Counted from the first letter of the stretch, positions 30,971-63,789 are shown. The stretch: DNA of 64,000 nt from an uncultured Nitrososphaerales archaeon (GCA_963706445.1 OY970160.1:512001-576000), one strand, 5' to 3'. The notes: a model not told the origin generated them from the letters alone. Made by a program: numbers and translations.

Positions 30971-31045
30971 GCCCCGGTGGTGTAGCCCGGTCAAGCATGT
31001 TACCCTCTCGAGGTAGCGACGCGAGTTCAAATCTCGCCCGGGGCA
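30971..31045 (+). tRNA. tRNA-Glu(CTC), provirus integration target
   Basis: GCCCCGG/CCGGGGC acceptor, anticodon loop CTCTCGA, T arm GCGAG-TTCAAAT-CTCGC. Confidence 0.93.
31035..31045 (+). repeat. attL core CGCCCGGGGCA
   Basis: Last 11 nt of tRNA-Glu, repeated exactly at 63779-63789. Confidence 0.8.
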
Positions 31046-31098
31046 CTGTACCTGCGGGTTATATTCTCCTCCGCGGGTACACTGCTGGGTGGAGTGAG

Positions 31099-32245
31099 TT
31101 GACCGCGAAGTCCCTGCTGGCGCTGCTGCCAGACCACGACAGGGCCACCGTCGAGGAGTTCGTCGTCTCCATCTCGCCCATGAGCGAGGTCAGGCTGCAG
31201 AAGTACCGCGCCTACCTCGGCAGGATGGCCACCTGGATCGGTAAGCCCCTGGAGGAGACGACCCGCAAGGACCTGGTCCGCGTCTGGCACGAGATCGACT
31301 CCATGGACGCTGAGCTCTGGACCAAGCGCGACTACGGCATGATGATCAAGCGCTTCTTCAGGTGGTTCAGGAACGAGGAGTTCGTCAAGGGGTTCAAGGT
31401 CCAGAGCGGCAGGGAGACGGTGGGGCCCGAGGACATCCTCACTGACGAGGAGCTGTTCAGAGTGTACCAGGCGTGCTACTCCCTCAGGGACAAGGCCCTC
31501 TCCTGCACGGCCTACGAGGCTGCCCTGAGGCCCCATGAGCTCATCAGGCTCAGGAAGACCGACGTCGCCCTGGACGACTACGGGGCCGTGGTCTACGTCC
31601 GGCCGGCCGCGACGGACTCGAACGCCAAGACGGGCGCCAGGAGGGTCAGGGTCGTGAACGCGGCTCCGCTGCTGGCCAACTGGATCGAGAACCACCCGCT
31701 CAAGGACAGGGACGCGCCCCTCTGGGTCGACATGAGCTCTAATACGACCTTCGAGCAGCTGAAGTGGACGGGGTACAGGAGGATAGTGCAGCGCTGGGCG
31801 CGGACCGCGAAGATAGAGAAGAAGTTCACGGCCTACCTGTTCAGGCACACGAGGCTGACGCACCTCGCCAAGTTCATGACCGAGGCCCAGCTCTGCATTT
31901 TCGCCGGGTGGAGCATCGGGTCGAAGATGCCCAGGATGTACGTCCACCTCTCGGGGAAGGACGTCGACGACTCTCTGCTGAAGGCCTACGGGCTGAAGAA
32001 GGAAGAGGAGCTCGAGGCCGAAGGTCCCGAGGAAGTGCGTCAGGTGCGGGGCGATGGCCAACGCGGAGGCCGAGACCTGCTCCAAGTGCGGCATGGCCAT
32101 GAGCCTGACGGCCGCCATGAAGAAAGATGAGGAGTTCGAAGAGATGCAGCGGAAGATGTCTGTCGTCCTGGACTGGATCAAGGGGCAGAAGGGCGGGGAG
32201 AAGGTCCTGCACCTGAAGCCCGGTGACATCCAGCCGAGTGCATGA
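31099..32245 (+). CDS. Tyrosine integrase; C-terminal Zn ribbon out of frame (+1 shift near 32015)
   Basis: ALRPHE, AKTG, YLFRH, GW, MYVHL catalytic motifs; CVRCG...CSKCG continues in the 32054-32245 frame; main frame stops at 32130. Confidence 0.88.
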
Positions 32246-32284
32246 CATTAACCTTAAGTGTGTTGGACGCATCGAACTCGAAGC

Positions 32285-32887
32285 ATGCCGGGCGAGCATC
32301 TGCAGGAGACCACCGTAGAAGACCTCAGGCACTCGAAGAAGGTCGCCGGTGAGCTCAACCCGGTGGTCATCGACAAAAGGACGGGCAAGGTCGTCTCCGG
32401 GGAGCACCGCCTGGAGGCCGGCTGGAAGAAGATCGTCTACATAGAGACCAAGGACGACGCCGAGTTCCACAGGCTCAGGATGCACTACAACCTGCAGCGC
32501 AGGCTGGCGCCTGACGAATGGTCGAATGAGTTCATCGAGTATGCCGAGGCGCTCATCAAGACAGGGCTCCCATATCCGGAGGTCCTGAAGGAGCTCCTCG
32601 AAAACGCCCCGTTCAAGGACAAGAAGTACGCCTACGAGTTCATCCCGGACTACCTGAAGAGCAACGAAGGGAGGCCTCGCCAGTTTCAGGAATCTGAAAC
32701 TCAGGCTCCGGAGCCTTTCACCCACGGAGGCTTCACCTTCGGGCCGAAGGACGAGGCCCCTGCCGCCAAGATAGGCGGCCTCGACTCCCACGAGTTCTGT
32801 CCCGAGTGCGGGCGCAAGGTAGAAGTCACGTGCAAGGGCTGTGGGACGCCGCTCAGGTCAACGAACAGCGGCTACGTCAAAGCATGA
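32285..32887 (+). CDS. ParB/Srx-like protein with C-terminal Zn ribbon
   Basis: GELNPVVID...VVSGEHRLEA; CPECG..CKGCG; CTTAAG TATA-like box upstream. Confidence 0.65.
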   Translation: MPGEHLQETTVEDLRHSKKVAGELNPVVIDKRTGKVVSGEHRLEAGWKKIVYIETKDDAEFHRLRMHYNLQRRLAPDEWSNEFIEYAEALIKTGLPYPEVLKELLENAPFKDKKYAYEFIPDYLKSNEGRPRQFQESETQAPEPFTHGGFTFGPKDEAPAAKIGGLDSHEFCPECGRKVEVTCKGCGTPLRSTNSGYVKA

Positions 32888-33210
32888 GCAAGTACTCGAC
32901 GCACCGGTACTGCGGGAGCTGCTACGGCTGGCACAGGATAGACGGGAGGCCCTGCGAGGCGTGCTGGGGGGATGTCGTCTGCGCGAGGTGCGGCACGCAT
33001 GGACCCGTCCCCGACGGCAAGAACATCGTCTGCCAGAAGTGCGGCCAGACCGACACGCTCCCCTGGCGGCTCTATCGGCGGTTCATACATCCACGAGACT
33101 TGAAGAAATGTCCGAGATGTGGGAGGCTCCTCAGGATGTCCCAGAGGGACGACCGCAGGGCGAACGGCCTGAAGCGCGCCGCGCCGAAGCTCGTCATCCA
33201 GAGTTCTTGA
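32884..33210 (+). CDS. Cys-rich protein with five CxxC motifs
   Basis: CGSC, CEAC, CARC, CQKC, CPRC; ATGA overlap. Confidence 0.6.
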   Translation: MSKYSTHRYCGSCYGWHRIDGRPCEACWGDVVCARCGTHGPVPDGKNIVCQKCGQTDTLPWRLYRRFIHPRDLKKCPRCGRLLRMSQRDDRRANGLKRAAPKLVIQSS

Positions 33211-33508
33211 TTCCCAGGTGCTCCATCATCCTCGCCTGCTGTTGCTCGATTTTGCCGAGCCTCTCTTCGAGGCGTCTGACCGCGTTCGCTTCGAGCGACC
33301 TTATCCGGTCGTCGAGCCTATTGTAGTCGTTCCTTCCCTGCCTTTCGAGGATGGCGTAGCCTCCGATGATCATGGAGGCGAGCAGGAGGTCGCTGGCCGT
33401 GAACAGGGTGTCCGAGGGGCTGGATAGAGGGATTTGGAGCCACGTCATGCCGTTGACGACTGCCCAGATGACTGTCAGAGCCTTCAGGACCAGAGGGAGG
33501 GCGGTCAT
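33194..33508 (-). CDS. Small 2-TM plus coiled-coil protein (holin-like)
   Basis: Two hydrophobic helices and a charged coiled C-terminus at the end of the late operon. Confidence 0.45.
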   Translation of the reverse strand: MTALPLVLKALTVIWAVVNGMTWLQIPLSSPSDTLFTASDLLLASMIIGGYAILERQGRNDYNRLDDRIRSLEANAVRRLEERLGKIEQQQARMMEHLGIKNSG

Positions 33509-34143: not shown

Positions 34144-34394
34144 AGCCCAATCACCATGAATCCTATCGTCATGGCGCACTTCCCGCCTGCAGCTGCGCCG
34201 ATGCAGAAGCCCGTGCACCCGACGTCGCCGTGGCCGGTGGCGTCCGTGTATCCCGAGCCTTCGCCTGCCGGGGTGGTCGCTATGTAGTTCACCATCGTCG
34301 AAATCGTGATGCCCAGGGAGTCGAGCCTCTTGATTTCGGCGTCCATCTTGGCCAGGACGTCGGCTGCGTCCGTCTCCCTGTTGACGGAGCTCAT
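34140..34394 (-). CDS. Small virion-associated protein
   Basis: ATGA overlap; N-terminal helix similar to that of the upstream gene. Confidence 0.45.
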   Translation of the reverse strand: MSSVNRETDAADVLAKMDAEIKRLDSLGITISTMVNYIATTPAGEGSGYTDATGHGDVGCTGFCIGAAAGGKCAMTIGFMVIGL

Positions 34395-35689
34395 GCCAGG
34401 GGCACCGGGGCCGTGAAGGCCGTTATCGGCTGGCTCGTGACCCCGTAGATTCCCGACTGCTGAATCTTCCTCATGCCTGCCTGGAGCCCGGGGCATTTGA
34501 GCGCGATTACGGTTATGTTAGTCGACTCGATTGGGTCTCCTCCCTGCTGGCTCGTGTCGGTGTAGGGCGTCCCGTAGCCGTCCGGGAGCGAACCGTCTCC
34601 GCTCTGGGCCTGCAGGAGGACCAGCGAGTTGATGACCTGTGCCAGCGTGACCCCTCTCGAGTTAGTAGGGCTGAGGTTCAGGAGGGTCGCCAGCTGAGTG
34701 TAGGCCGCCAGGCTCCTCGTTGTGTAAGGCGGGCTTCCGGCTCCTGTCGTCAGGTTGGCAGCCGTGCCGAACTGGACGCAGCCGTCGCTTCCCATGTAGG
34801 CGAGCTTCCCCATGTTCGTCAGGGTCTGCGTGGCCAGCGAGACCTGGTTCCGCAGGAACAAGTTCATCCCCTGATAACCGCCGTCCGGGATCGCGCTCGT
34901 GCTGACGTTGATCGCCCCGTTGGCGAGGGTCTGGTTGCAGGTCGGGAGCCAGAAGTAGCCAGGCCACGGGACGCCTGCGTCGGCTCCTCCAGGGGTCCAG
35001 AGAGTCGTCCGGTCTGCGTGGGTGACGGGGCTCGCCCCGAAGATGCTGAAGACGTGGCCCAGGGGAGCCGTCGCCCAGCCGATGGCCGTGGTGCCGTCCA
35101 TGCCGATGTTCGTGTTCTTCTTCGAGTAGGGGATTATCCTGCCCGTGAACGAGTCGTCGTTCCAGGTGTCGTGATATGGGATTCCGTCCCTGGTCGGAGG
35201 CATGAAGGCCGCGCTGTTCAGAGAGGCGACTGCGCTGAAGACCCTGCCAGAGATGTCTCCGTAGGTAGTCCCTGCGTAGTTCTCCCTGATGCCGTAGGCG
35301 ATCTTCAGGTTCTCGTTGGGCTCATAGGTGTAGAACTTCGGAGTCCCGACCGACGGGTGGGCCGAGTCTTTGTAGTAGCATCCGGTCGACAACGGGGTAG
35401 ACCCTGTCTTGGTCGTGCCCTGTCCGATGAGGTTGACCGTGGGGTTCCATCCGGCCGTCAGGAAGTTGATGGCTGCCTTGGCGTCGAACGAGTTCGACGG
35501 GGAGCCGACGGTCGCTGTGGCGACGTCTGTGAACCCTGCCCCTTCGCCAAGGAGCTGGGCGAGGTAGTTGCCTCCTCCTCCGCCGCCGAAGGACCCCGTG
35601 AGCTGGGTCTTGGCGCTTATCCTCTTGAGCGATGCATTGTAGGCCGCTATCAGGTCGGCGACGTTCTGGGGCCTGTTCGTGCTCGTCAC
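34391..35689 (-). CDS. Minor tail protein, possible enzymatic alpha-helical domain
   Basis: GTGA overlap; poly-Gly linker; C-terminal LLQAQSGDGSLP motif. Confidence 0.5.
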   Translation of the reverse strand: MTSTNRPQNVADLIAAYNASLKRISAKTQLTGSFGGGGGGNYLAQLLGEGAGFTDVATATVGSPSNSFDAKAAINFLTAGWNPTVNLIGQGTTKTGSTPLSTGCYYKDSAHPSVGTPKFYTYEPNENLKIAYGIRENYAGTTYGDISGRVFSAVASLNSAAFMPPTRDGIPYHDTWNDDSFTGRIIPYSKKNTNIGMDGTTAIGWATAPLGHVFSIFGASPVTHADRTTLWTPGGADAGVPWPGYFWLPTCNQTLANGAINVSTSAIPDGGYQGMNLFLRNQVSLATQTLTNMGKLAYMGSDGCVQFGTAANLTTGAGSPPYTTRSLAAYTQLATLLNLSPTNSRGVTLAQVINSLVLLQAQSGDGSLPDGYGTPYTDTSQQGGDPIESTNITVIALKCPGLQAGMRKIQQSGIYGVTSQPITAFTAPVPLA

Positions 35690-36285
35690 GTGGACGATGC
35701 ACCCGTCCACTGAAGGGTGGTCGTCAGGGTCGAGTTCGCCGGGTAGGTGATCGTCGGCGAGTAGAGCGCGCGTTGGAGCATGGACCCGCCCGTGATGAGG
35801 TTGAAGATCCCCTCCTCGGCGATGGTGTTGCCGCAGGCTGGCGAGGTGTTCGGGAAGAAGGCGTCTATCTCCATGCCTTTCCCGGACGAAATCGTAAAGA
35901 TGTTCGAGGCGTTGACCCTGTCCTTCTCTGTCTGTAGGGCCGAGTCTCCGGCTGCCGGCGCGGTCGAGCCCGTGCCTATGGCCTGATACTTCGGGAGGCT
36001 GCTCGACGTCCCGATGAGGATGCTGACGACCAGGACCAGGCCGTCGTCGACCGTCTTGTTGTGTGGGGCCCAGAGTCGCCTCGGCAGGGTCCGCCCGAGG
36101 ATCTTTCTCGGCGTGCAGAGCCTTCCCCAGCTGGCGAGGACCCTGTCCTTCTCGAGCTCGTGCATCAGGCCGACAGAGAGGTCCTTCTTGCCGAACAGGC
36201 TCCGGTAGTGGTCATAGCTCGGGACCGTGTCCGGGTTCCAAGCCATGCCCCAGCCAGTCCCTTTGAACAGAACACCCTCTTTCAT
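35686..36285 (-). CDS. Tail/baseplate structural protein (fibre-attachment-like)
   Basis: AIGTGSTAP..GD.AL.TE and IAEEGIF...GSML.R motifs seen in phage fibre N-terminal domains. Confidence 0.55.
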   Translation of the reverse strand: MKEGVLFKGTGWGMAWNPDTVPSYDHYRSLFGKKDLSVGLMHELEKDRVLASWGRLCTPRKILGRTLPRRLWAPHNKTVDDGLVLVVSILIGTSSSLPKYQAIGTGSTAPAAGDSALQTEKDRVNASNIFTISSGKGMEIDAFFPNTSPACGNTIAEEGIFNLITGGSMLQRALYSPTITYPANSTLTTTLQWTGASST

Positions 36286-36316
36286 ACCCGCGATTTCTCC
36301 GGACGGCTCTTTAACA

Positions 36317-39300
36317 TCAAATCAATTCGACGGCCTGGATGTGGAACACCGTCGGGCCCCTCGCCTGCTTCTGGGTCTCGAAGACGAAATCCATCCCCAT
36401 CACTTGGAAGTATTCGTTCAGCCCGGTCTGGACGGTGATGACAGTGACCAGCTGGCCGAGCTTCGGGAGCCTCTCCGGGATGTAGCAGTAGCAATCCAGG
36501 ACCCGCTTGCCGCTGCCCGAGAGGCTGACCTGGGCCACGACCAGGTTCACCATCGTCTGCCTGTCTCTGACGTTCTGGTCCGTGACGACGTCCTCCGAGA
36601 GCAGGTATTGGCTCTGGCTGACGGCGTTGTCCGCCTCCGTGACGATGAGCGGGGCCGAGTAGGTCCTGAAGGCGTAAGTGATTGTCGACGCCGTAGGAGT
36701 CCATGCCTGTCCCGTCGGTCGACGTGGCCTTCCTTCCCGAGGTGCCCGAGTCGTGGTACCAGCCATAGGTGTTGCCGGAGTCTCCTATCATGGCCAGGGC
36801 TATCCAATACTTCTGACCGACGAGCACGGTCTGGCTCCCGATGTCTGCCTGGACCCAACCGCCCCCCGAGAGGACGGTCGACACCGGGACCGTGAACTGC
36901 TTGACCAGAGCCCCAGGGACGCCTCCGACGTCGACGAAGACGTAGCCCTGCAGGTCTCCGGTCGGCGTCCCGGTCTTGTTGACGTAGATTCCGATGTATT
37001 GAAGCGTCTCCTGGGTCGGCGCGAACTGGAAGGCAATCCAATTGGCGTTGATCTTGTCGGCTCCTCCCACGACCGACGTCGAACTCTGGTCGATGACGGT
37101 GCTGTCCGTGCCTCCCAGCCCGTAGAGGCGGTTGACCAGGTCGGCGGAGGTGTCCTCGAACGAGAAGACCGCATCGTCGACGGCGTAGAGGACCCTGCTC
37201 TGGTCGTTCCAGGCCGCTCCCGTGGCCGGGTCGTCTGTGATGAGCGCCAACGAGTCCACAATCTCCGGGAAGGCGAAGTGGAGAATCTTCTCCTCGTCGA
37301 CCCACCAAACGCAGCCGGCCTGGGCTGCCAGGTCGTTCAGGATGTCGCTGATGCGCTTGTAGGGCGCGACGTAGCTGGGGATCGATATACCCGTGCTCGC
37401 TATGGTCGAGTTGTAGCCAGTGCCTGCGTAGAGCTGGGCCACCTCTCCGAGCGCCTGCTGGCCGACGGCCACGTCTCCGTCAGACATGGCCCGGTTGATG
37501 ACCTTCACGTCGTCGATGGTCGCGTTGAGCTTGCCCGCTCCGCTCCCCTCTGCCCCTATCCCCAGGGCCGTGTTGTTAGCGACTGGGACGTCAGAGTAAC
37601 TCCCCTGGGCCACCAGAATCCCGTCGACGTAGAGGCTCAGGTTCACCATATCGTAGACCCCGACGACGTGGTGCCAGGCTCCGGTCGAATAGCCCGTGGT
37701 CGCGTCGACGTATCTGAAGGCTGACCCTGTCCCGAACGAGACCCGGAAGGCTCCGGCGTTGGTGACCTGCAGGGCGTAGTTCCGGTTGTTATCTGCCAGC
37801 CCTTTGATGACGATGCTCGTGACCGAGCCCGGGGTGGCGATGACATAGACCCAGGCGGCTATCGTGAACGGCCCGGGGATGTCCAGGGTCGCCGCGTCCT
37901 GGACGGTCAGGTAGTTCGTCGACCCGTCGAAGGTCAGGGCGTGGCCGAAGAGCGAGTTCTGGCCGGAGGCCCAGGTCGGGGAGCCCGTGGCCGTGGCGTT
38001 GTTCCCGTTCCCGCTGACGTCTCCCGGGGTGGTCCCGGAACCTTCGTCGAGCGGCAGGTAGAGCACGAGGTTCGCGCGTCCGGGCCCTACCGTGTGGTAT
38101 TCGATTCCCTCATACTGGAAGACGGTCTGCTGCTGGGTCGGGTAGGCAGACTTGTCCGTGAGCACGAGCTTGACCAGGTTGCCCAGCTCGGTCGTCTGGT
38201 CCGTGCTGTCCACCGTGACGCCGTCCGACTGCTTCTTCTGGAACCTCGAGAAGTTGCCGATGCGCCTGGTGAGCCTCTGGGTCCAGTCGAAGCCGGCCAC
38301 CTCGTAGACCAGCCTCCCCAGGGCTGGCACCGTCGTCTTGTTTCCTGTGACCCGGCCGCTGAAGAACTTCACATACTCGCCTGACCTGCCCGCCCAGATG
38401 TCGACAGGGGTGTCGAGCAGGATCTTCCCCAACAAGACCTGGCCGGAGTCCTCTATCTCCAAGTTGAACGTCGACGCCACTCCTTCGGCTCCTCCGTTCG
38501 TGGTGATGCTCAGGAGGTTGAAGTCTGTCCTCGGGGCGACCGTGATGGGCGGGCTCGTGGCCAGCGTGAGGACCTCCTGGGCGGTGAGGACCCGGTCGTA
38601 GGCTCTGGGGTCGTCCACGGTCGAGTTCTGGGCGTGGTTCACCCCGTCGCCGAAGATGACCTTGTAGCCGGCCGAGACTCTGACGGTGACGGCGAGGGCG
38701 TGCTGGTCGAGCTGGACCCCGTCCAGGTAGAGCGTGATGGTCGCGCCATCGTAGGTCATGGCGAGGTGGTGCCAGCCGTTCAGGGGGGCCGTGTTCGAGC
38801 CGGGGCTGTAAGTGTGCTGGGAGTTGCCCGAATCGCAGAGCCCGTACTGGATTGCAAGGTTGCCGAGGACCTGGATCCACCAGTCGTAGTTCGCGGAGTT
38901 GCTCGTGCCTCCCGTGGCCTTTCTGACGATTACCTCGAGCAGCTGGGACGGAGCCTGCGCGAGGTAGGCCCAGGCGCAGATGCTGAACCCGCCGGTGAAC
39001 TGCAGGGCCGCGTTGTCGGCGACCTCGACCCAGTTGGCTGTGCCGAACTGGAGGGCGTCGCCGAACTTTCCAGGGACCCATGCCGGGGAGCTGATGAGGC
39101 TGCCCGTGTTCCCGTTGCCGCTCTTGTCTGTGGCCGTCGACCCGGTCCCGTCGTCCAGGGGCCAGTAGCCGACCAGGCCCAGGGGGACCGTCGGAGCCGC
39201 CGAGCCGTAGGGGTCTGCGACGTAGGTGAACCCCGGGGTCTTCAGCTGGACCTTCGCCAGCATGGGGCCCGTCTTGAACGGCCCAGTAGGCGGAGGCGGA

Positions 39301-39926
39301 GGCGCAGCTTGGGACGTCCTGAGCTCTATGGCAGCTGCTACCCAGCCAGCGGTGCCCGAGCCTGTCTCCCCAAGGGTCAGGGCCGCCGGCGTGGCGTTGG
39401 TGATGTCCTCGAGGCAGCTCGAGACAACTATCCCATAGATGTCCTGCCGGTTCAGGGTCACCCCTGCCCCGTAGGCTGCCATCGTGACGTTCAGGTGGAC
39501 GACCCAGCCGCCGACCACCCAGTTGTTGTTGTCCTGGGTCGTGACAGCCAGGGTCCCGGGGTCGGCCGATGCGCTCGAGGAGCTGTTCACGTTCCCGATT
39601 GCCGTGACGCTGGTGTAGGACACCGTCTCGGCCGTGAACTTCCCCGACCCGCTGTTGGTGACCGTGATGACGTTGGAGGCTGCCCCGGCGGTGGCGATGC
39701 AAGTCCAGATTTCGACAGAGACGCCTGCCGACCCGCCTGCGATCCCGGTCGCCTTAGAATAGCTGTTCCCTGCCGTGTCCGTGATTGTGGAGACCGACCT
39801 GGCGGAGCCTACTGCGAGGCCGACCAGGACGACTACACAGTCTCCGATGGCAGTCGCGACGGCAGGGAGCGCCCCGGAGATGGCGTTGAACGAGCCGCCC
39901 GTGATGTTCTTCCTGACGCTGGCCAA
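36317..39926 (-). CDS. Large tail tip/hub protein with two LamG/ConA-like domains; +1 frameshift near 36707
   Basis: Two LV.Y.PLD.G.G...D.SGNGN...W..G..G.AL.F...WHH...YD...LY.DG domains; hub-like WWVDEEKILHF; natural C-terminus is in the 36317-36766 frame. Confidence 0.8.
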
Positions 39927-43676: not shown

Positions 43677-44056
43677 GATGCTGGGGCTCCTGCTGCAAAC
43701 TTGGCGTCGAGGGCTGCTACGAGGGCGTTGGCGATGGCCTGGTCAGATGCCGGGAGCTTTGCGATCTCTGTCTGGGCGATTGCCTTTGCGTCCGTCCAGG
43801 TCTTGGCGATTCCGGCGGTGGTGGTGGTCGACCCGACCGGGACGGTCCCGGTGTCGACGAAGGCGATGAGGTCAGAGACCACGTCGCCTCCCAGGACTCC
43901 GACTCCTGTGGCGACGGCGGTGACGAGGGCCTGGTGTGCAGGCGAGAAGGCGCTTGCGATTGCTGGGACGTTCCCGGCCACGAAGCCGAGCACGCCTCCG
44001 AGAGACCAGAGGATGCGGTCGAGGATGTTCTTCTGCTTTAGCGACAGTGATACCAT
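43673..44056 (-). CDS. 2-TM membrane protein (holin-like)
   Basis: Two hydrophobic helices; own late-promoter motif at 44081-44091. Confidence 0.5.
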   Translation of the reverse strand: MVSLSLKQKNILDRILWSLGGVLGFVAGNVPAIASAFSPAHQALVTAVATGVGVLGGDVVSDLIAFVDTGTVPVGSTTTTAGIAKTWTDAKAIAQTEIAKLPASDQAIANALVAALDAKFAAGAPAS

Positions 44057-44096
44057 TTGCGAGTTCTCAAGTCGCAGGCACCGTCTTTAACGGGAC

Positions 44097-44390
44097 TCAG
44101 GCCTTGACCTTCTCGTAGTAGGCCGTCACGGTGCCTACCGAGTGGACCCACTCCGGCTTGTAGTCGGCCGCTTCGCCTGGAGGCTCCGGGGCTTCCCTGA
44201 ACCCGCTGAAGTCCCACCAGCTGATGCCCGCCGCCGGGTTCGCCTTGAGCAGGAGGACCTGCTGGGCCACTTCGAGCTCCATCTTCCATTTCTTGTCCTT
44301 GTTGGCGTTCCCCTTCGCCCAGACGTGGACGGAATGGTTGTCCAGGTATTCCCACCTGGCCGCCCCCATGCTCGTAGGCCTGAGGACGGG
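44097..44390 (-). pseudogene. 3' remnant of a tail-terminator-like gene
   Basis: Coherent frame WEYLDNHSVHVWAKG...HSVGTVTAYYEK that begins abruptly where the capsid sequence degenerates. Confidence 0.45.
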
Positions 44391-45225
44391 TGAGGTCGGG
44401 GTCGAAGATGGTCTTGACTTGTGGGTATCCGATGGCTCCGAGGTCCGCCGTCCCTGCGTCGAGGGCAGCGGCCGGGTTGTGGTATCTGACGAAGGTGTTG
44501 CTGCGGAAGTTCTTCCAGACGGTGGGGTGCATGGCGACCGTGTCGACCTGGAACCCAGACTGCGCGATGGCGTCATACTGGGCGTCGATGTCGGTCAGCG
44601 GGTTGTAGAGGCTGAAGTCGTTGTTCGAGTTCATGGTGGCGTAGCTGCCGACGCCTGCTCCTGCGCCTGCGTCCGACTCTGCGATCGTGGCCAGCTGGCT
44701 GTTCTCCAGCTTGACGAGGGCCATGGCGGCGTTGCTGACGTGGAGGGCGAAGACGTCGTGGACTGCCTGCTTCTCGGACTCGTCCGAGAGCAGTATGTGG
44801 GCGACGTTCTTGCCGATGGCTGCCAGGTCGAAGGTCGTCCTGGCGTAGGTCTGCTTGACGACCTGGGCCTCCTCCAGCGGGAGGATGCGGCCGGTCGCCG
44901 AGAACTTGGTGCCGAGGTCCACACTGAGGACCAGCTGCGGCGAGTTGATGATCTGGAAGCACTCCCTCAGGCGGTATTGTCTGAAGGTCAGACCGAGGAC
45001 CTGGTCGAGCACGACTATCGCCTTGATGGTCGAGCTGTCCGGGGTGTCGAAAATGCCTGCGCGGAGCTCCTGTTCTGCGGCTCTCAGGAACCTGGGCTCT
45101 ACTTCGGTGGGCCTGCCTTTCGCTCCGAACTTGGCGACGTATTCGCTGGTCTCGGGGTGGCCGACCGCTCCTCTGTAGAAGACCTGGTCGTCAGGGTTGA
45201 ACCAGGCGAGGTGTGTTCCGTCCAT
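44390..45225 (-). CDS. Major capsid protein (HK97 fold), C-terminally truncated; ORF runs on out of context to 44038
   Basis: E-loop-like ILPLEEA, KNVAHILLSDE, VDTVAMHPTVW; follows protease and cement genes. Confidence 0.75.
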
Positions 45226-45228: not shown

Positions 45229-45669
45229 CTATGCACTTATCCCCGCTCGGTAGCCGAGCAGAATCCTTCCGGTGCCGTTCTTCGTGATGGCTTCGTAGGC
45301 CATGCCCACGATGAGCCTGAGCTCCTTGGTCTGTGACTGGACGTAGTTGCTGCTGAAGTCGGTCGCCTCCGCCAGCTGGACCTTTGTCTTGGCCGTGGTG
45401 CCGGGCTTCACGAAGTTCCCGAGCGGGACGGCTGCGACGTTGTCCTCTGCAACCTCGACGATGCCTTCGAGGAGGCACCTGCCGGTCCCTGCTTTGGTGA
45501 TGGCTTCGACCGCGACCACATAGGGGCCTGCGTCTGTAGTGTTCTGGGCGTCGTGGACCTTCCCTGCGCGTAGGACGCACAGGTCGCCTTTGACGATGGC
45601 CGATGTGTTGTCCTCGGTGAGCTGGATGAACCGCGCTCCAATCTCACTGTCTACGTCTCCTACCGCCAT
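45229..45669 (-). CDS. Capsid cement/decoration protein
   Basis: 146 aa, IVKGDL, VAVEAI, EGIVEV, VGMAYEA; between scaffold and MCP. Confidence 0.6.
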   Translation of the reverse strand: MAVGDVDSEIGARFIQLTEDNTSAIVKGDLCVLRAGKVHDAQNTTDAGPYVVAVEAITKAGTGRCLLEGIVEVAEDNVAAVPLGNFVKPGTTAKTKVQLAEATDFSSNYVQSQTKELRLIVGMAYEAITKNGTGRILLGYRAGISA

Positions 45670-47054
45670 TAGGCGCCGCCTCCTCTGTTTGCTCCAAACA
45701 AGCTCGAGTACAGTTCGTCGACGATGCTGTCAGGCGCCATGCTGTCTGCGGCGGCCGCCTGGAAAGTGACCGTGGATGCTCCCCTCGTCTTGAGGGTCCC
45801 TGCGAGTATCTTCTGATAGGTCTCGCCGATGACGTTGAGCGCATCCGCGCTGAGCGTCTTGATGGCTTCGACCTCTTTGGCGAAGTCTGCCTGCCTGGCC
45901 AGACCCGCCTGAACCTTGAGCTCTACCACCCTGTTGATGACCTTGTCGTGCTCTGCGGCGATCCTCTGGGCCTTCTCCATCTCAAGGACGTCGAGCTTGG
46001 TCTTCAAGCCTTCGATGGTGGCATTGAACGCAGCACACTTGGCGTCCATGTCTGCCTTCATGTCCGCGATCTTCTTCTCCGCTTCTGCGGGCTCCATTCG
46101 AGGTTGGTTCGCCGTCGGAGGCTCTTTAACGTGGTCCGCTTCCGAGAATTTCGACCAGGCGTAGGCGTAGAGCTTGTCGCTCTGGATCTTGTCTCCGATG
46201 AGCTGGGCGGCTTCTCCGACCGTCTTGGCCAGGCCTGCCTGGATGGCAGCCCCGACGCTCCTGTTCTTGATGGCCGCGCAGACCTTCTGGGCCGTGTCCT
46301 TGTCGCCGTACTTGTCCATCATCTTGGACAGGCACTGCTCCCAGGGGAACGAGCCAGGGCCTGACGCGGGCGCGGCGTAGTAGTCCTTGAGCAGCTCGTC
46401 CATCGACGCGACGAAGTCCAACGTCTGGGGCTTCTGCTCTCGTGCTTCTTTAACGGCCAGCTCGAGGGCGGCCGAGAAGTTGCAGGTCCTGACGTCGGGG
46501 CTGACGCAGGTCCCCTTGACCCGGGCCTGGCTTCCGAAGGCCGGCCTGGCGACGAAGGCGAGGTGCCTGCCGAGGAACGACTTGACCAGCTCCAGCCCTC
46601 CGCTCTGAGTGACGTTGTTCGTGTCTACCCGGATCTGGGGGCTGACCCACATCCATGCGCCGCTCTTGATCCCCTCCCAGGCTGCGTCGTCTGTTATCTC
46701 CACGATGCCGAAGGCGTCCTGGGCCTGGCCGACCTCGATTATCGTCCCGACCTTGTGGCTCTGCTCGTAGGCTGCGAGCTCTGCCGGGCTGAAGCTCTGA
46801 AGATCTCCTGCAGCGTCCTTGTAGGTCCCGTGCTCGTTGGGATCTCCGGGTGGACCGAGGACAGGCCTGCCGATGAACGACCTGAGCCCGTCCATGATGG
46901 CGTCCGTCGTCACGCCCCACTTGTTGAGGCTCATGCTGTCGTCGATGAGGAAGACCTTGACGTAGTGCTTGCCAGACTTCTCGTAGGGCTCGAAGCTACG
47001 GCTGAGATAGTTCAGAACCTGAGGCGTCTGGACTTGGGTAAGAGATTGTGACAC
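45669..47054 (-). CDS. Prohead protease-scaffold fusion
   Basis: GRPVL...H, WVSP, HLAFVARPAFG protease motifs; C-terminal coiled coil. Confidence 0.8.
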   Translation of the reverse strand: MSQSLTQVQTPQVLNYLSRSFEPYEKSGKHYVKVFLIDDSMSLNKWGVTTDAIMDGLRSFIGRPVLGPPGDPNEHGTYKDAAGDLQSFSPAELAAYEQSHKVGTIIEVGQAQDAFGIVEITDDAAWEGIKSGAWMWVSPQIRVDTNNVTQSGGLELVKSFLGRHLAFVARPAFGSQARVKGTCVSPDVRTCNFSAALELAVKEAREQKPQTLDFVASMDELLKDYYAAPASGPGSFPWEQCLSKMMDKYGDKDTAQKVCAAIKNRSVGAAIQAGLAKTVGEAAQLIGDKIQSDKLYAYAWSKFSEADHVKEPPTANQPRMEPAEAEKKIADMKADMDAKCAAFNATIEGLKTKLDVLEMEKAQRIAAEHDKVINRVVELKVQAGLARQADFAKEVEAIKTLSADALNVIGETYQKILAGTLKTRGASTVTFQAAAADSMAPDSIVDELYSSLFGANRGGGA

Positions 47055-47616: not shown

Positions 47617-49385
47617 TCTTCCGTCGCATCCAGGGTCTTGTCGGTCAGCTTAAGGCCAATCGTCTTGACGCTGAGCGAGGCCGTCAGGGTCTTCGCGCTG
47701 AGCCTCACCGTGTGGTCCTTCTTGCTCAACATGACAGTCAGGGTCTTCGTGATGAGCCGGAGCGCTATGGCCAGGACCATCCTGGAGATGGCCGATGCGG
47801 CGAACCCTACCGCGAAGCTCGCAGACGCCGCCTGGCTGAACGCGAACCCGGGACTCATGGACAGGCCGAAGGACGCCTGGACCGACTGGCTGAGCAGCTC
47901 CGTCGCCGTGAACCCTACGCCGAAGCTCGCAAGCACGCCCTGGCTGACCACGAACGAGGCGCTGAACCCTATCCCGAAGGTTCCGGGCGCAGTCGCGCTC
48001 TGGACCCCGCCTGCGGCGACTGCGACGGCCGACATCCCGAGAGCGAACTCTGCAGCAACGGCCTGGCTCATCGTCTGGGCTGCCGAGAACTGGACGCCGA
48101 AGGTCCCGGAGACGAGGATGACGTTGACCTCGGCCGCAGCGAACCCTACCCCGAATGACGCTCCGACAGCCATCGTGTTCTTCTCAGCGGCGGACATGGC
48201 CAGCCCGAACGATGCGGCGACGGACTGGCTGAGAGACTCCGACGCTGAGAGCTGGATGCCGAAGGACGCTCCTATAGACACGACATTGATCTCCGAGGCC
48301 GTCAAGGCCACTCCGAACGAAGCAGCCGCCTTCTGTGTGAGCATCTGCTCAGCTGCAGACATCGCCACGCCGAACGACCCCGCTACGCCCTGGCTGAGAA
48401 GCTCGGCCGCTGTGAACCCGGCCCCGAACGATGCGCCTATGGCGACCGTGTTCTTCTCGGCTGCTGCCAAACCGACCCCGAAAGTCCCTGCGACCAGGAC
48501 GGCGTTCGCCTCGACCGCAGACATGGCTACCCCGAAAGACGCCCCGGTCGACATGATGTTCTTCTCTGCGGCGGACATCTGGACCCCGAAGACGCCAGCC
48601 GATGCCTGTTGCGGGAACGCCTCGGAGGCTGCCATCGCCACCCCGAAGGCCCCCGACGTCGCCTGACTCGCCATCTTCTCTGCAGCAACGAAGGCCGCTC
48701 CGAACGAGGCAGAGACCGCTTGGCTCATCTTCTGGGTAGCCGAGAGCCCGACGCCGAAAGAGGCCGCCACCGGGGCGGGGGATATGAGCTCGAGGATTAC
48801 CGCCTGCCATTGGGTCGACCCCGACCCCGTCTCGCCGACCGTGACGGAGCCGCCCGACGCGCTCTGAAGGTCGAGCAGGGACTCCGTGATGACGGTCCCG
48901 ACTACCTCGGTGTCCCTCTGGGTGACGCCCGCCCCCGATGCCGAGGTGGTGACGTTGAGGTTGACGACCCATCCGGCCACGGCCCAACTCTGCGCCCCGA
49001 CCGTCAGCGAAATCGTGCCGGGGTCTGACGTCCCTGCGGCCGAGGAGTTTACCCCTTCGGCGAGGACGCTCGAATAGGAGGCTGTCGACGCCCCGAACTT
49101 TCCGTTGGCCGAATTGGTTATGGCGATGACGTTAGAAGCGTTCGCGTGGGTCGCGCCCTTGCAAGTCCAGATTTCGACGTCCCTTGAGGCCGTGGCCCTG
49201 CCGACCCTCTTGGCGTAGGTGTTCCCTCCGGTGTCTGTGATGGTCGAGACGACGGTCGCCGCAAGTGCAGTAGCGACGACTACGACGATCCAGTCCCCGA
49301 GCGCGGTGTTGATGGCGGGAAGGTTGACGGTGTTGGTCGCGCTTGAGCCCTGAACCGCTCCCGTAATGTTGAAGGGGTTGGCCAT
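47613..49385 (-). CDS. Repeat-rich fibre protein (about 18 repeats of 18-19 aa)
   Basis: ASFGVG.SA.E repeats; N-terminal 200 aa paralogous to the tail-tip protein N-terminus; 9-aa L..K repeats at the C-terminus. Confidence 0.7.
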   Translation of the reverse strand: MANPFNITGAVQGSSATNTVNLPAINTALGDWIVVVVATALAATVVSTITDTGGNTYAKRVGRATASRDVEIWTCKGATHANASNVIAITNSANGKFGASTASYSSVLAEGVNSSAAGTSDPGTISLTVGAQSWAVAGWVVNLNVTTSASGAGVTQRDTEVVGTVITESLLDLQSASGGSVTVGETGSGSTQWQAVILELISPAPVAASFGVGLSATQKMSQAVSASFGAAFVAAEKMASQATSGAFGVAMAASEAFPQQASAGVFGVQMSAAEKNIMSTGASFGVAMSAVEANAVLVAGTFGVGLAAAEKNTVAIGASFGAGFTAAELLSQGVAGSFGVAMSAAEQMLTQKAAASFGVALTASEINVVSIGASFGIQLSASESLSQSVAASFGLAMSAAEKNTMAVGASFGVGFAAAEVNVILVSGTFGVQFSAAQTMSQAVAAEFALGMSAVAVAAGGVQSATAPGTFGIGFSASFVVSQGVLASFGVGFTATELLSQSVQASFGLSMSPGFAFSQAASASFAVGFAASAISRMVLAIALRLITKTLTVMLSKKDHTVRLSAKTLTASLSVKTIGLKLTDKTLDATEE

Positions 49386-49412
49386 CGCGGGGTCGTTTCG
49401 TCTGGTCCGGCT

Positions 49413-50153
49413 CTATAACTTGCCGACCGTCTCGCGCCTGACCCTGCCGTCCCACATCCTGAGGTGGACGCACTTGACGCGGGTGTCGACCCAGACGCCG
49501 TGGCCGGCCTTCTGGGCGATGAAGCAGAAGATGTGGTCCTCTGAGAAGACTATCTCTCCTCCTTCGACGTCGACGACGCGGGTGAGGTCGAACCTGACCC
49601 TGGGGTCGTCCAAGACCTTCCTGGAGATGAACATGCAGGCCGTGTTGACGGCGCCGACCTTCGCGAGATCTTCCTCGGGCATCTCCTTTGCGAACTGGAA
49701 GAACGGGCGGAAGTATCCGAACCCCGGCCTGAAGCGGCCGTCCTGGTCGGGGATGTTCACGAGGCCCCCGACGATGTCCTTGCCGTCTGCTATGAACCTC
49801 CTGATGGCGTCTCTCGGCGGCTGGACGTCCGAGTCGACGAACCAGCCGTAGTCGCTCCCCTTCGCCCGGGACAGGAGCAGGTTCCTGATGGCGCCGAGCT
49901 CCGTCATCCTATTGTGGTGGAAGTCCTCGTCGGCCCTCTGGGTTACTTCGTAGCGCATCACCTGGTGGTCGAGCCTGAAGTTCTCTTCCACGAAACGGGC
50001 CTGATCGTCTCCCTCCGCCGGGACCGCGAAGACGAACTTCAGCCTGTCCTTGGGCCAGTCAAGACGATACCACGAAGACCAGACCGGGAGCAGGTTCTCG
50101 TTGTGCTGAGGCTGCCCGCTCAGGGGAGTGAGGACGACGACGGAAGGGCGCAT
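49413..50153 (-). CDS. GT-A fold (GT2-like) glycosyltransferase
   Basis: RN.LL, WFVDSDV (DxD), KDIVGG, SEDHIFC, VWVDTRVKCVH. Confidence 0.8.
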   Translation of the reverse strand: MRPSVVVLTPLSGQPQHNENLLPVWSSWYRLDWPKDRLKFVFAVPAEGDDQARFVEENFRLDHQVMRYEVTQRADEDFHHNRMTELGAIRNLLLSRAKGSDYGWFVDSDVQPPRDAIRRFIADGKDIVGGLVNIPDQDGRFRPGFGYFRPFFQFAKEMPEEDLAKVGAVNTACMFISRKVLDDPRVRFDLTRVVDVEGGEIVFSEDHIFCFIAQKAGHGVWVDTRVKCVHLRMWDGRVRRETVGKL

Positions 50154-50163
50154 GGCGCCGGGC

Positions 50164-50850
50164 TTACGTCAGGGCGCCTGTGTAGGTGACGGTCAGGGTC
50201 CCTGTCGCGGAGACCGGGAATCCCGCCCCTGCGTTGACCGTGTCGTGGCAGATGAGGAACTGGAAGGTCGCCGACGTCATCACGAGGCCGACCTCCTTGT
50301 AGGTGATTGTCGCTCCTGAGCTGTTCGTGATGGTCGCCGTGATCGAGAGGTTGTTGTTGGCGCTGATCGCACCGACGAGGGCTTGGGCCGAGTAGTTCGT
50401 GGCGACGTTGTAGTTCGAGGTCGCTCCGCCTCCGAAGGTCTGGAGGTTGTAATCGTTGAAGTTCGGTCCTGTCGCGCCTGTCCCGGCCACGATGTAGGGC
50501 GGGATCGCGCCTCCGCTGTTCCCTGCTGAGACCGAGCGGTTGGTGTTGTTCACATCGAGGATGTTGACGGCCGCTCCGGCGATGCCTCCGAGGATCGCCT
50601 GGGCCATCCACTTGCCGAACTGGAGCGTCGAAAGGTCTGACCAGCACTCGCCGACTATGCCTCCCTGGCAGTCTGCGAACTTGTCCAGGAGGACCGTCCC
50701 GTCTGACTGGGCCTTGCCTGCCGGGAAGTGGGCGTAGCCGTGCTCCGGGCACGGGTCCCTGGCGACGATGTGGGTCGACATCTTTGGACCGAAACCGCCC
50801 ATGGTTGCTGGAGGAGTTGTCTCGCGTGGAATCGGTAGCGATGCCGACAT
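50164..50850 (-). CDS. Structural protein (fibre-attachment-like), similar in type to 35686-36285
   Basis: IVAGTGATGP...DYNL and ITYKEVGL motifs. Confidence 0.55.
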   Translation of the reverse strand: MSASLPIPRETTPPATMGGFGPKMSTHIVARDPCPEHGYAHFPAGKAQSDGTVLLDKFADCQGGIVGECWSDLSTLQFGKWMAQAILGGIAGAAVNILDVNNTNRSVSAGNSGGAIPPYIVAGTGATGPNFNDYNLQTFGGGATSNYNVATNYSAQALVGAISANNNLSITATITNSSGATITYKEVGLVMTSATFQFLICHDTVNAGAGFPVSATGTLTVTYTGALT

Positions 50851-55533: not shown

Positions 55534-55535
55534 GT

Positions 55536-55946: not shown

Positions 55947-55955
55947 CTTATGACC

Positions 55956-60432: not shown

Positions 60433-60433
60433 G

Positions 60434-60952: not shown

Positions 60953-60955
60953 GTG

Positions 60956-61237
60956 TTACGTCCCATGCTCCCAGCGATGTTTCCTGAGCTCGGTCTCTGA
61001 ATGAAGCAGCCGTCCGCATGAGTTGATTGGACAGATGAAGATCGGCTGTCCTTCCTGGTGCTGGATGCAGCTTCCTCTTAGGTAGCCCTTGCCTCCAAAA
61101 TACAGGTCGAGCCTGCAGCCACAGGGTTGGGGGATTTCCACCTTGATCCCCATCCGCTTCTTCCCTGGGTGCTCTAATGTCGGCCGAGTCATTAATCCAG
61201 GGACGAATCCCTTGCGGCGCGACTCCAACACATCCAT
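60956..61237 (-). CDS. C2H2 zinc-finger protein
   Basis: CPINSCGRLLHSETELRKHRWEH. Confidence 0.6.
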   Translation of the reverse strand: MDVLESRRKGFVPGLMTRPTLEHPGKKRMGIKVEIPQPCGCRLDLYFGGKGYLRGSCIQHQEGQPIFICPINSCGRLLHSETELRKHRWEHGT

Positions 61238-62635
61238 CAGCGAGAGGCCTCCAGGACGACGTGACCAGGTCTGATGCCTACTTCCGGGGCCCTGGGGGAG
61301 GGGGTTTCGCCCTTTTTCGGGCGTCCCAGGGGCTTGTACCCCCGGAGGGTATTGAACGAGGGGTTGTGGAGGACCCCCTGCTTCCCCAGAATGACCGCCA
61401 CTTCATCGCGGTTCACTCTGATGCCGAATATCTCAGGCTCGGCGTCCTGCTCATCCAGGCTGGCGAGCAGCCATCGGATGCTCTTCGCATGAGAGAGGAG
61501 GGCTTTCTGCTTCACGATGGCCCTCTGGGTCTCGGGCTTCGTCTACGTCCCCCCTGTAGGCGTCATGCGTAGAGCCTCTTCGTCTGCTCGGCAGAAGCGA
61601 TGAAGGCCTTGGTCTCCTTCTGGACGTAGGGCCAGAAGGCCTTGTCGGTCAGCAGGGGGGCGTCGACGAGGAGCAGCCTCAGGCCGGCCTTGACGCCGAC
61701 CTGGGCCATGCACTCGTCGAAGGCGACCTCGGGCGCAGTGTCGGTCAGCTTCACGTTGTCGAAGTGCCTGATCATCGAATCGGTCTTGCCCATCGCCATC
61801 AGTCCCTGTGCGTCGTCCCGTCCAGGTTCAGCGGGGCCTGTCCCTTGCGGAGCACTATGGTCTGGCCGCAGTTGTCGCAGGGCTTCTGGAACCCCGACGG
61901 GGTCGAAGTTGCTGACTTGGGCGGCGCCGCTGCAGGCGTGGCTGCCGAGGCCTTGAACCGGCCCATGACGTAGATGATCCTGGTGGCCGTCTGGAGCTGC
62001 AGGGTCCCTTCGAGCACCGCCGAGTTGACCATCTCGGAGACCTTGATCAACTCCCATCCCTTCGCGAGGTACTCGTTGGTGGTGCGCTCGTCGTGGACTT
62101 CGTTGATCTCTGCCAGGCCGGACCAGTAGCGGTCGGAGCTCATGCCGGGTCCCCCGCCTCGCAGACGATGCGCGGCCCCTCGACCCTATGCGTGTGGCCG
62201 AAGGGTGAGTTGGGGCACGACACGACCTCGATACGCTCGGGGAGGCTCATGCTTCCGCCGTCAGCTCCGAGATGGCCGCTTTCTTCCAGTCGTGGGTGCT
62301 GGTCCCCGTGCCGTTGAAGTGGAAGTGGTTCGGGTCGCCAGGCCTTGCCTCGCAGGCCTTGCCGCAGACCCATAGGCCGAAGCGCTCGGGGCACTTCTCC
62401 CTGCACTTGGAGATCATCTGGCCGGGTCCCTCTTGGCGCTGATCCTACTCTCGAGGTCCTTGGCTATCCGACTGACGATCTCGTCCGCGCACTCGTCGCA
62501 CGCGAACCTGGTCACGCCCTCGATGGTCGTGGAATAGCCGTCCTCGGCAAGGGTGACACCGTTGCGCTTCCTGCAGGCCTTCGTCAGCTCGAAGTCGCAG
62601 TGTTCGGCTTTGGTCTCGAGGACGGTGGTGGTCAT
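61237..62635 (-). other. Array of small early ORFs (61237-61515, 61563-61800, 61799-62143, 62247-62417, 62414-62635)
   Basis: Chained overlapping ORFs, several with CxxC motifs. Confidence 0.5.
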
Positions 62636-62805
62636 CTTGCCGGCGCCGCCTGCAGCTTCTCGTACTTGTAGGCCAGGCCCAACGCGAAGTGGATCGCGTC
62701 GGTGCTCGTCTTGATGCGGTTTCTCTCCTTGAAGGCGAGGAACTCCTCAGCCTCTTTGTCCTCAAGGTCGATCCTGATGTGGATCGGCTCAGTCTTTTGT
62801 CCCAA
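62632..62805 (-). CDS. 57-aa RHH-like regulator (Cro-like position)
   Basis: MGQKTEPIHIRIDLEDKEAEEFLAFKERNRIKTSTDAIHFAL; below ORF-track cutoff; first gene of the leftward operon. Confidence 0.6.
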   Translation of the reverse strand: MGQKTEPIHIRIDLEDKEAEEFLAFKERNRIKTSTDAIHFALGLAYKYEKLQAAPAR

Positions 62806-62940
62806 AATCACTCACGCGCACTCTGAAGCAATAGTGAATATAAGTGTTTGCTAATCACTACCAATGCACGGGATATGCTATACCAAAAGTGTAGTGAGTC
62901 CAAATCACTTATAATCACCTCTGTTCCTGTAGGATGACCG
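62806..62940. promoter_or_regulatory. Divergent promoter region with two AGTG-N9-CACT operators
   Basis: Operators at 62843-62859 and 62893-62909 abut TATA boxes TTATAT (minus, 62843-62838) and TTATAA (plus, 62909-62914). Confidence 0.6.
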
Positions 62941-63351
62941 ATGCCGAAGAAAGCGGAAGGCAGATACAACGTCCGGGTGAACTTCGAAGGTGACGAACTG
63001 GGCAGATTGAGAGAAGTCATGGACCACTATGGCATGACGGTGGGGACTGAGCTGATCCTGATGCTCCTGAAGCGCGAATACGACCAGCTGCACAACACGA
63101 AGCCCCGCTTCGAGCACGTCAACCCCAAGGAGGGCTATCCCACCGACCACGTCTCCATCCTGGATAGAGAACTTGGGAATGGGGGACGGATCGTGAGCGT
63201 GTACTTCAAGCGCGACAGGGCCCCCTTCTGCGACTACGACCAGGGGAGCGAGTGCGTCCACGTCGACTACGCCTGGCAAATCCCCACGGTCGCCGAGCGC
63301 CTTCGCAAGGAAGGGTTCAAGAGTCCAGGCGAGAAGCAACAGAGGAGGTGA
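62941..63351 (+). CDS. Repressor-like RHH protein with C-terminal SWIM-like Cys/His motif
   Basis: YNVRVNF...LREVMDHYG....ELILMLL; FCDYD...CVHV. Confidence 0.6.
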   Translation: MPKKAEGRYNVRVNFEGDELGRLREVMDHYGMTVGTELILMLLKREYDQLHNTKPRFEHVNPKEGYPTDHVSILDRELGNGGRIVSVYFKRDRAPFCDYDQGSECVHVDYAWQIPTVAERLRKEGFKSPGEKQQRR

Positions 63352-63358
63352 ATAGAGA

Positions 63359-63751
63359 ATGGGAAAATACCTATGTCCTAACACGAATTGCAAGGACCTC
63401 GGCAGGTACGAAGAGGGTCAGGCCTGCCCTACCTGCGCACAGACCATCAGGAAGCTCGGGATCACGGAGACGTTCAGCGTCAGCAAGGCCAAGAGGCAGA
63501 GTGCGGGAGACGAGGCCGCGCTCCTGGTGACCGCCGACATGAGCGACGAAGAGATCAGGGAGCTGGCCGAGCAAGACATGGCCAACCTGGCCAAGCACGA
63601 GGCTGGGACCAAGTGGATGAGGGTCGGCACGCTGCTGTCGGGCAGCTCTACTGACCAGATGCTCGGAGCAGGGTTCAAGGCCATCATCGACCAGAACAAG
63701 ATCCTCATCCGGCAGAACGAGCTCATCCTGAGGGCGCTGAAGAAGGAGTAG
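63359..63751 (+). CDS. Lysogeny-module protein with N-terminal Zn ribbon
   Basis: CPNTNC...CPTC; C-terminal KAIIDQNKILIRQ helix. Confidence 0.55.
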   Translation: MGKYLCPNTNCKDLGRYEEGQACPTCAQTIRKLGITETFSVSKAKRQSAGDEAALLVTADMSDEEIRELAEQDMANLAKHEAGTKWMRVGTLLSGSSTDQMLGAGFKAIIDQNKILIRQNELILRALKKE

Positions 63752-63778
63752 GGGAACTTGACCCGCAGGTCCCATGCC

Positions 63779-63789
63779 CGCCCGGGGCA
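63779..63789 (+). repeat. attR core CGCCCGGGGCA
   Basis: Exact repeat of the tRNA-Glu 3' end; flanked by an arm inverted relative to the attL-side arm. Confidence 0.8.

Follow-up and report, generated by a model that had tools for sequence, protein, structure and literature searches.

The stretch of DNA analyzed here, in the following called the window, comprises 64,000 nucleotides of the genome of an uncultured Nitrososphaerales archaeon (GCA_963706445.1, OY970160.1:512001-576000); all positions are counted from its first letter. Directly 3' of a tRNA-Glu(CTC) gene, it contains an element of ~32.7 kb (31046-63789), which is very probably a recently disabled, temperate, siphovirus-like archaeal virus (Caudoviricetes) with exact ends and an internal deletion of ~2.8 kb. 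According to this model, the virus would have inserted its genome into the 3' end of the tRNA gene in a soil archaeon of the order Nitrososphaerales by means of its own tyrosine recombinase, an enzyme of the XerA/phage-integrase type; because the crossover lies inside an 11-bp core that is also carried by the virus, the tRNA stays whole. At a later time, the internal deletion of ~2.8 kb took away the last 55-60 residues of the major capsid protein (MCP), together with the four genes that follow it and the beginning of one more. The remaining element keeps an intact integrase, the terminase, the portal, the tail genes, and the regulatory region. It is probably still excisable, or some cells are simply without it, and it would presumably no longer form virions unless a helper is present. 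The coordinates of all features are compiled in Table 1.

Ends of the element, integrase and target site

Five lines of evidence agree on the exact ends: a direct repeat, an inverted repeat, synteny, a contig representing the empty site, and the gene arrangement of a free relative. The core CGCCCGGGGCA, which is the 3' end of the tRNA, occurs exactly twice in the 64-kb window, compared to 0.09 expected copies, and two copies were reached in one out of 100 shuffles. Its length of 11 bp is consistent with the range of thaumarchaeal att sites, which begins at 8 bp, with 17 bp as the median (PMC6563490). When position 63789 is joined to 31046, and only then, the core becomes flanked by a perfect 10-nt inverted repeat; this was reached by 6 of 5000 shuffles. 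The two arms may be the core-binding sites of the integrase.

The neighborhood of tRNA-Glu is the same in genomes of the same genus. The left flank, consisting of TatD, a gene of 106 amino acids (aa), and tRNA-Glu, is conserved in 10 of them, and in six of 10 the genes of the right flank are found within 2-8 kb past tRNA-Glu, with provirus genes absent between. In the same-genus genome G061, the bases 3' of the tRNA (GGACTTTCAAAT) are similar to the window from position 63790 onward (GGACTTCCACAT). No viral genes were found beyond 63789; the next genes belong to the host and are syntenic in same-genus genomes.

The public sequencing runs which hold the sequence are soil metagenomes of one study only, and there is no RNA run among those listed. 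In run X1, one contig of the right flank carries, just before position 63779, the loose letters AGTTCAAATCT, which are identical to the bases 31024-31034 of the tRNA T-arm. This contig has the order tRNA, core, right flank and therefore represents the empty site attB. Run X3 contributed only fragments of 25-34 nt, which stem from other organisms. In a free metagenomic relative of ~33.8 kb, which is characterized below, homologues of the outermost provirus genes (136 aa, 62941-63351; 209 aa, 32258-32887) flank a single integrase module; this adjacency matches the prediction made by circularizing the provirus.

Genes were called by means of third-position GC content. A longer open reading frame (ORF) on the minus strand beside the tRNA (31027-32229, 400 aa) was rejected, as its GC profile is that of a shadow frame to the integrase on the plus strand. 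Judged from its sequence, the integrase is catalytically complete: the positions R, K, H-R (H-x-x-R), W, and Y all align to XerA of P. abyssi (4a8e). There are two candidate starts. The TTG at 31099, which lies behind a TTATAT box at 31059, is the likeliest start in the integrated state; the ATG at 63774 is available in the excised form only, where it is in frame with the integrase across the attP junction. In integrases of the SSV type, attP is located within the integrase ORF, which is thus split on integration; here, the att core would take up at most codons 2-6 of the possible ORF beginning at this ATG, and the catalytic domain lies entirely on one side. At the other end of the element, the divergent small genes at 62.4-63.8 kb presumably constitute the lysogeny switch. 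The free relative has also kept the 136-, 59-, and 73-aa genes of this region; RHH-like Atlas neighbors of the 136-aa protein are taken as a lead only, and the 130-aa end gene has no match in Pfam, NCBIfam or PHROGs.

Further observations concern the integrase and the target site. A paralogue of the integrase (47% identity) is located outside the window on the host chromosome (G000:C1:1522300-1523414), directly after another, intron-containing tRNA and with a similar tRNA-gene junction (TACCT..TTATAT); it probably belongs to a second integrated element with the same type of integrase. Four same-genus genomes (L033, L034, L035, L042) possess a conserved host gene of ~577 aa between tRNA-Glu and the 221-aa gene of the right flank. 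A homologue of this gene is found nowhere in the host genome; there, the flank gene follows attR at a distance of only 118 nt. G061 has an additional 5.9 kb of DNA at the tRNA-Glu site.

The capsid region and the free relative

The metagenomic relatives of the element have TerL sequences that are 79-81% identical to its own. One close relative occurs in more than 20 assemblies, in contigs of 28.9-34.6 kb, none of which is longer than 50 kb or flanked by host genes; examples are JAFMOA010004009.1, ERZ27249969 k141_570437, and IMGVR_UViG_3300038415_000044. The contigs begin at varying points of one gene map, and the lengths 33,973, 33,987, and 33,876, which originate from three assemblers, equal 33,846 plus 127, 141, and 30. 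Contig sizes, k-mer overlaps, and start points suggest that the ~33.8-kb relative is circular and near-identical across many samples. It has the same gene order and ~20 genes in common with the element, with identities of 79% for TerL, 68% for the portal, 66% for the N-terminal part of the MCP, 73% for the tail tube, and 59% for the ATPase. Its capsid gene is complete (339 aa), and five genes (237, 306, 133, 49, and 170 aa) are located between capsid and connectors. It is without the fiber/glycosyltransferase cassette by the portal and has a 1090-aa tail protein which the window lacks. The gene that takes the place of the integrase (357 aa) has no relationship to the integrase of the window; the integration module was therefore swapped between the element and this relative. 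The 357-aa protein has no match in Pfam, NCBIfam or PHROGs and resembles a locus of the host chromosome (G000:C1:1617898-1618740).

The capsid ORF of the element (44038-45225, 395 aa) matches its family only with residues 1-279, the last of which form the motif FDPDLT (position 44389), and relatives consist of 335-339 aa with a shared, conserved C-terminus. Positions 44402-44103 encode residues of another gene in another frame, and the tail of the capsid ORF is therefore an out-of-frame read-through. Compared to the free relative, ~2.8 kb are missing, namely the capsid C-terminus (55-60 residues), the 237-, 306-, 133-, and 49-aa genes, and codons 1-69 of the 170-aa gene. The capsid C-terminus and the 306-, 133-, and 49-aa genes were not recovered at any other place in the window or in the host genome; for the protein of the deleted 237-aa gene, the host genome contains no more than a remote match with 28% identity.

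An exhaustive profile search gave 145 clusters of the capsid family, whose full-length members can, with few exceptions, be aligned up to the end. Similarly, when 401 Nitrososphaerales genomes were searched with a profile, the capsid of the window covered positions 10-266 of 320; intact copies covered ~12-318. An AlphaFold model of an intact homologue (predicted local distance difference test score 85.7, predicted TM-score 0.80) matches HK97-fold capsids, the best one being that of Haloferax tailed virus 1 (HFTV1; E 9.5e-15, TM-score 0.60-0.70), and has three long, confident core strands in the part which is missing here. A contig of run X2 covers positions 44256-44455 without differences and spans the deletion junction, which is why the deletion is not peculiar to one assembly. 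The other large genes (TerL, portal, tape measure, tube, integrase) are full length in comparison to their relatives; judged by these sequences, the deletion is probably recent.

These findings modify the first-pass annotation, which had described an end-to-end provirus in tRNA-Glu with both att cores, ending at 63789, and with integrase, packaging, head, non-contractile tail, and switch modules. Both cores and the ends were recovered exactly, syntenic host genes follow the right one, and the modules are present, with support from hidden Markov models for integrase, TerL, portal, tape measure, and tube. The content is not end-to-end, as the deletion truncates the capsid protein. Hence, the element derives from Caudoviricetes and is no longer a complete member: TerL and portal are present, a complete HK97-fold capsid is absent. 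The lesson is that two att sites and a full set of modules do not make a provirus complete.

Host, viral relatives and competing explanations

The host genome is a closed single contig of 1.82 Mb with an archaeal small-subunit rRNA. Its ArgRS is 73-83% identical to sequences from metagenome-assembled genomes titled Nitrososphaerales, Nitrososphaerota or Thaumarchaeota archaeon, which agrees with the Nitrososphaerota-like host proposed initially. AmoA had no match in the host genome, an absence which is not firm, as the control genomes hold no ammonia oxidizer. GC content (~57%), genome size (1.8 Mb), soil habitat, and the missing AmoA match fit Group I.1c/Gagatemarchaeaceae, whose GC content ranges from 54% to 62% (PMC10640624), and do not prove this assignment. 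A recent acquisition is supported by the GC contrast between provirus (~63%) and host (~57%), by the absence of TerL from 36 same-genus genomes, and by the absence of the capsid family from the 96 other genomes of the host's own family (the provirus is thus present in one of 97). Across the whole order, the profile search detected the capsid family in 14 of the 400 genomes other than that of the host, and these represent five taxonomic families. Searching genome contigs, the element's own genome not included, with a profile of the TerL alignment gave no relative.

In a set of 50,697 deposited phage and virus records, the single match to the element was the Nitrososphaera provirus Nvie-Pro1 (FR725450; Krupovic et al. 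2011), with 35% identity for TerL and 27% for the tail tube; portal and capsid had no match among these records. Nvie-Pro1 resides in a host of the same order and has, like the element, a siphovirus-like layout and no recognizable replication genes. Six homologues are collinear (TerL, tube, chaperone-like, tape measure, baseplate, and fiber; 24-35% identity), but only these 6 of ~45 genes are common, and BLAST detects no similarity for capsid and portal. Moreover, the MCP of Nvie-Pro1 is fused to a protease, and defined att sites and an integrase are lacking, whereas the element has att sites, an integrase, and a separate capsid gene. The record of Nvie-Pro1 is classified only to class, and there is no formal family for Nvie-Pro1-like head-tail proviruses. 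HFTV1 and other HK97-fold tailed viruses follow the same TerL-portal-MCP-tail logic; the sequence identity to HFTV1 is ~16%, and there is no sequence-level relationship of the element to haloarchaeal virus families.

The idea of a likely new virus group is accordingly retained in so far as the element does not cluster with any classified virus; however, Nvie-Pro1 is a distant relative, and the lineage is well sampled in metagenomes. The accompanying statement that few tailed viruses are described for TACK archaea is out of date, since the proviruses of Thermoproteota and Nitrososphaeria recorded in recent surveys number in the hundreds (PMC13573593, PMC11849493). Tailed Nitrososphaeria proviruses have been described since 2011 (PMC6563490, PMC11849493, PMC13573593), and the element adds one more member. 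As a side note, a region left of Nvie-Pro1 which is annotated as 'archaeal host sequence' (FR725450.1 875-1063, minus strand) encodes a homologue of the 136-aa end gene (31% identity over 71 aa, E 4e-6). As the latter is a conserved virus gene in the lineage, the annotated left border of Nvie-Pro1 may be placed too far inward.

Three other explanations were weighed against that of a recently disabled temperate virus. If the 11-nt repeat were coincidental, the true borders would lie elsewhere, or the element would have arrived by a different route. Eleven bases are indeed short, and one shuffle in 100 did produce two copies; thaumarchaeal att sites are typically short, though, and a chance repeat would leave unexplained the inverted repeat across the junction, the break of the attB contig exactly at 63779, the flank similarity to G061 from 63790, and the host synteny on both sides. 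Coincidence is therefore hardly credible. Likewise, the element might be an intact, inducible temperate virus, in which the 395-aa capsid gene works as a variant specific to its lineage. The full length of TerL, portal, tape measure, tube, and integrase, the attB form in the metagenome, and a composition still unlike that of the host would all suit such a virus. What makes it unlikely is the nature of the C-terminal capsid tail, which results from reading the remnant of another gene out of frame, together with the absence of C-terminal strands conserved in 145 family clusters and the loss of four genes of the free relative. The third possibility, a domesticated head-tail element resembling a gene transfer agent, has a precedent: such a domestication was proposed for thaumarchaeal head-tail loci without att sites and replication genes (PMC6563490), Nvie-Pro1 has been discussed in these terms, and recognizable replication genes are also missing here. 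Yet the element has exact att sites along with an integrase, its capsid gene is defective, and its near relatives circulate as free, genome-sized contigs of ~33.8 kb. It is found in one of 97 genomes of the host family, and its TerL in none of the 36 same-genus genomes. Patchy distribution, integrase, and att sites argue against domestication, and the distribution largely refutes it, such that we consider this origin very improbable. In the 2019 survey, head-tail proviruses are elements without defined borders (PMC6563490); unlike those, the element is a head-tail provirus with exact borders, and it resembles the tRNA-targeting elements of that survey, which integrate into tRNA 3' ends and have short att sites and a tyrosine recombinase beside att.

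Several points nevertheless weigh against a recently disabled temperate virus. The attB evidence consists of a single low-depth contig with 11 distinguishing letters, which cannot separate excision from a co-existing strain that was never lysogenized, and no attP junction was among the loose ends listed from the metagenome runs. As the runs holding the sequence come from one study, they may include the source sample and hence are not independent of the assembly. The four deleted genes have no match in Pfam, NCBIfam or PHROGs. That capsid function is lost is deduced from the model of a homologue, and packaging of the element by a helper virus would in principle be conceivable.

The disabled temperate virus, which we continue to prefer, would be a provirus caught just after its disabling. 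For the classic proviruses Nvie-Pro1, NCAV2-Pro1, and CalSub-Pro, no borders can be defined, which leaves the choice between virus and domesticated element open. In the present case, the att sites are exact to the base, the integrase is intact, the empty site is represented by a read, and free relatives of genome size exist; this indicates that the lineage behaves as an ordinary temperate virus. With considerably less confidence, and more as a suggestion than as a conclusion, we propose that the element for the first time links a host to a widespread lineage of archaeal siphoviruses that is not classified (circular, ~33.8 kb, more than 20 soil/peat-type assemblies), which would merit a new family and whose host would be a non-ammonia-oxidizing soil member of the Nitrososphaerales, probably of Group I.1c. 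The same tentative proposal includes that, in the excised attP form alone, the integrase acquires an in-frame ATG further upstream and is reached by read-through from the regulator operon. If this were true, integrase expression would be coupled to the integration state, and an abundant uncultivated virus lineage of soil and peat would be tied to the non-ammonia-oxidizing Nitrososphaerales, a group for which we found no described virus.

Packaging, tail and remaining genes

Nearly all genes between the att cores are located on the minus strand. By gene content, a siphovirus-like type is supported, as tube and tape measure are present and a sheath gene is not: only small ORFs and the tube gene lie between the capsid gene and the tape measure, and there was no match to a sheath family among the proteins scanned. 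Applying the rule of 0.15 nm per residue, the 483 aa of the tape measure would correspond to a short tail of ~70 nm, which is a reasonable estimate. Polymerase, primase or MCM were not recognized among the provirus proteins, the HerA/FtsK-like ATPase being the only other NTPase; replication may thus proceed via host enzymes. Both absences had already been noticed in the first reading of the sequence.

Table 1. Features of the provirus and its integration site, in window coordinates
Feature	Position	Strand	Remarks
tRNA-Glu(CTC), integration target	30971-31046	+	ARAGORN; last 11 nt are the attL core
attL core CGCCCGGGGCA	31035-31045	+	exact 11-nt direct repeat
Tyrosine integrase	31048-32130	+	PF00589 E 8e-12, 45.6 bits (cut-off 27.1 bits); XerA-like in NCBIfam
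attP inverted-repeat arm, partner ACCTGCGGGT	31050-31059		perfect 10-nt
209-aa zinc-ribbon protein	32258-32887	+	weak DZR match; co-directional with integrase; 44% identical to 197-aa integrase neighbor in free relative
Distal tail/fiber genes, 237, 439, 199 aa	33505-36285	-	
1214-aa baseplate/receptor-binding protein	36282-39926	-	two Laminin_G_3 domains, PF13385 E 5e-46; match to Nvie-Pro1 'baseplate protein'
Tape measure protein (TMP), 483 aa	39931-41379	-	more than 20 PHROG TMP families, best E 4e-19; match to Nvie-Pro1 TMP
Small genes between tube and tape measure, 117 and 51 aa	41380-41881	-	117-aa protein matches Nvie-Pro1 gp20
Tail tube (major tail) protein, 297 aa	42279-43169	-	weak PF18906; Nvie-Pro1 major tail protein E 1e-13
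Three small genes, 83, 70, 127 aa	43169-44056	-	two with homologues just upstream of the relative's tube gene
Remnant of 170-aa gene (residues 70-169)	44103-44402	-	different frame from capsid ORF; 60% identical to free relative's 170-aa protein
Truncated HK97-fold major capsid gene	44389-45225	-	residues 1-279; ORF continues out of frame to stop at 44038
146-aa and 461-aa head-assembly genes	45229-47054	-	79% and 51% identical to free relative
CxxCxxCC-domain protein	46996-47616	-	PF03692 E 2e-11; conserved beside portal gene in free relative
Cassette between portal and CxxCxxCC genes, 3.2 kb	47613-50850	-	228-aa protein, glycosyltransferase-like 246 aa, 590-aa repeat protein
Portal protein, 513 aa	51232-52770	-	PF04860 E 1.3e-12, above curated cut-off; phrog_12
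Terminase large subunit (TerL), 456 aa	54166-55533	-	phrog_9 E 2.6e-13; homologue of Nvie-Pro1 TerL
HerA/FtsK-like P-loop ATPase, 462 aa	59044-60432	-	PF01935; sub-threshold NCBIfam HerA matches
C2H2 zinc-finger protein, 172 aa	60434-60952	-	PF00096 E 4e-10
Divergent region, putative switch	62414-63751	-/+	73-aa and 59-aa genes (-) facing 136-aa and 130-aa genes (+)
attP inverted-repeat arm, left ACCCGCAGGT	63761-63770	+	perfect 10-nt
attR core CGCCCGGGGCA	63779-63789	+	exact 11-nt direct repeat

For some of the small proteins, a role is suggested by position: the 117- and 51-aa proteins are candidate tail-assembly chaperones, and those of 83, 70, and 127 aa are candidate head-tail connectors. 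The 146- and 461-aa proteins are candidates for a scaffold and a protease-scaffold, a lead only, given by Atlas neighbors in the Mu-like_Pro and DUF2213 clusters. Among the distal tail proteins, the one of 199 aa matches phrog_5417/4176 and the tail fiber of Nvie-Pro1; the 237- and 199-aa proteins have homologues in the tail module of the free relative. Nothing was found in Pfam, NCBIfam or PHROGs for the proteins of 439, 237, 228, 161, and 145 aa. The 439-aa protein of the tail module (34391-35710, minus strand) has two homologues of ~25% identity in the host chromosome (G000:C1:842044-843039 and 848768-849682).

In comparison with the free relative, the portal-side cassette is seen only in the window copy. 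Its 590-aa protein (47616-49385, minus strand) consists of ~18 tandem repeats of 18 residues (ASFGVxxSAxE), which are reflected in a 54-nt periodicity of the DNA. Homologues of the 228-aa and 590-aa proteins are part of the tail-fiber module of the free relative, the homologue of the latter being shorter there; the cassette was either relocated or separately acquired.

Two minor observations remain. The ARAGORN run listed only 23 tRNAs in the whole genome, many intron-bearing tRNAs thus probably being missed; the window also contains a tRNA-Arg(CCG) of 93 nt (12509-12601, minus strand), which probably contains an intron. Finally, the motif GTTA(A/T)AGAGCC occurs in four copies with at most one mismatch (0.84 expected), only inside the provirus and on the coding strand (minus-strand sites 36305, 46120, 49409, and 50873). 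Three copies are located ~20-35 nt upstream of gene starts and one within the 461-aa gene; the motif looks like a viral promoter element.

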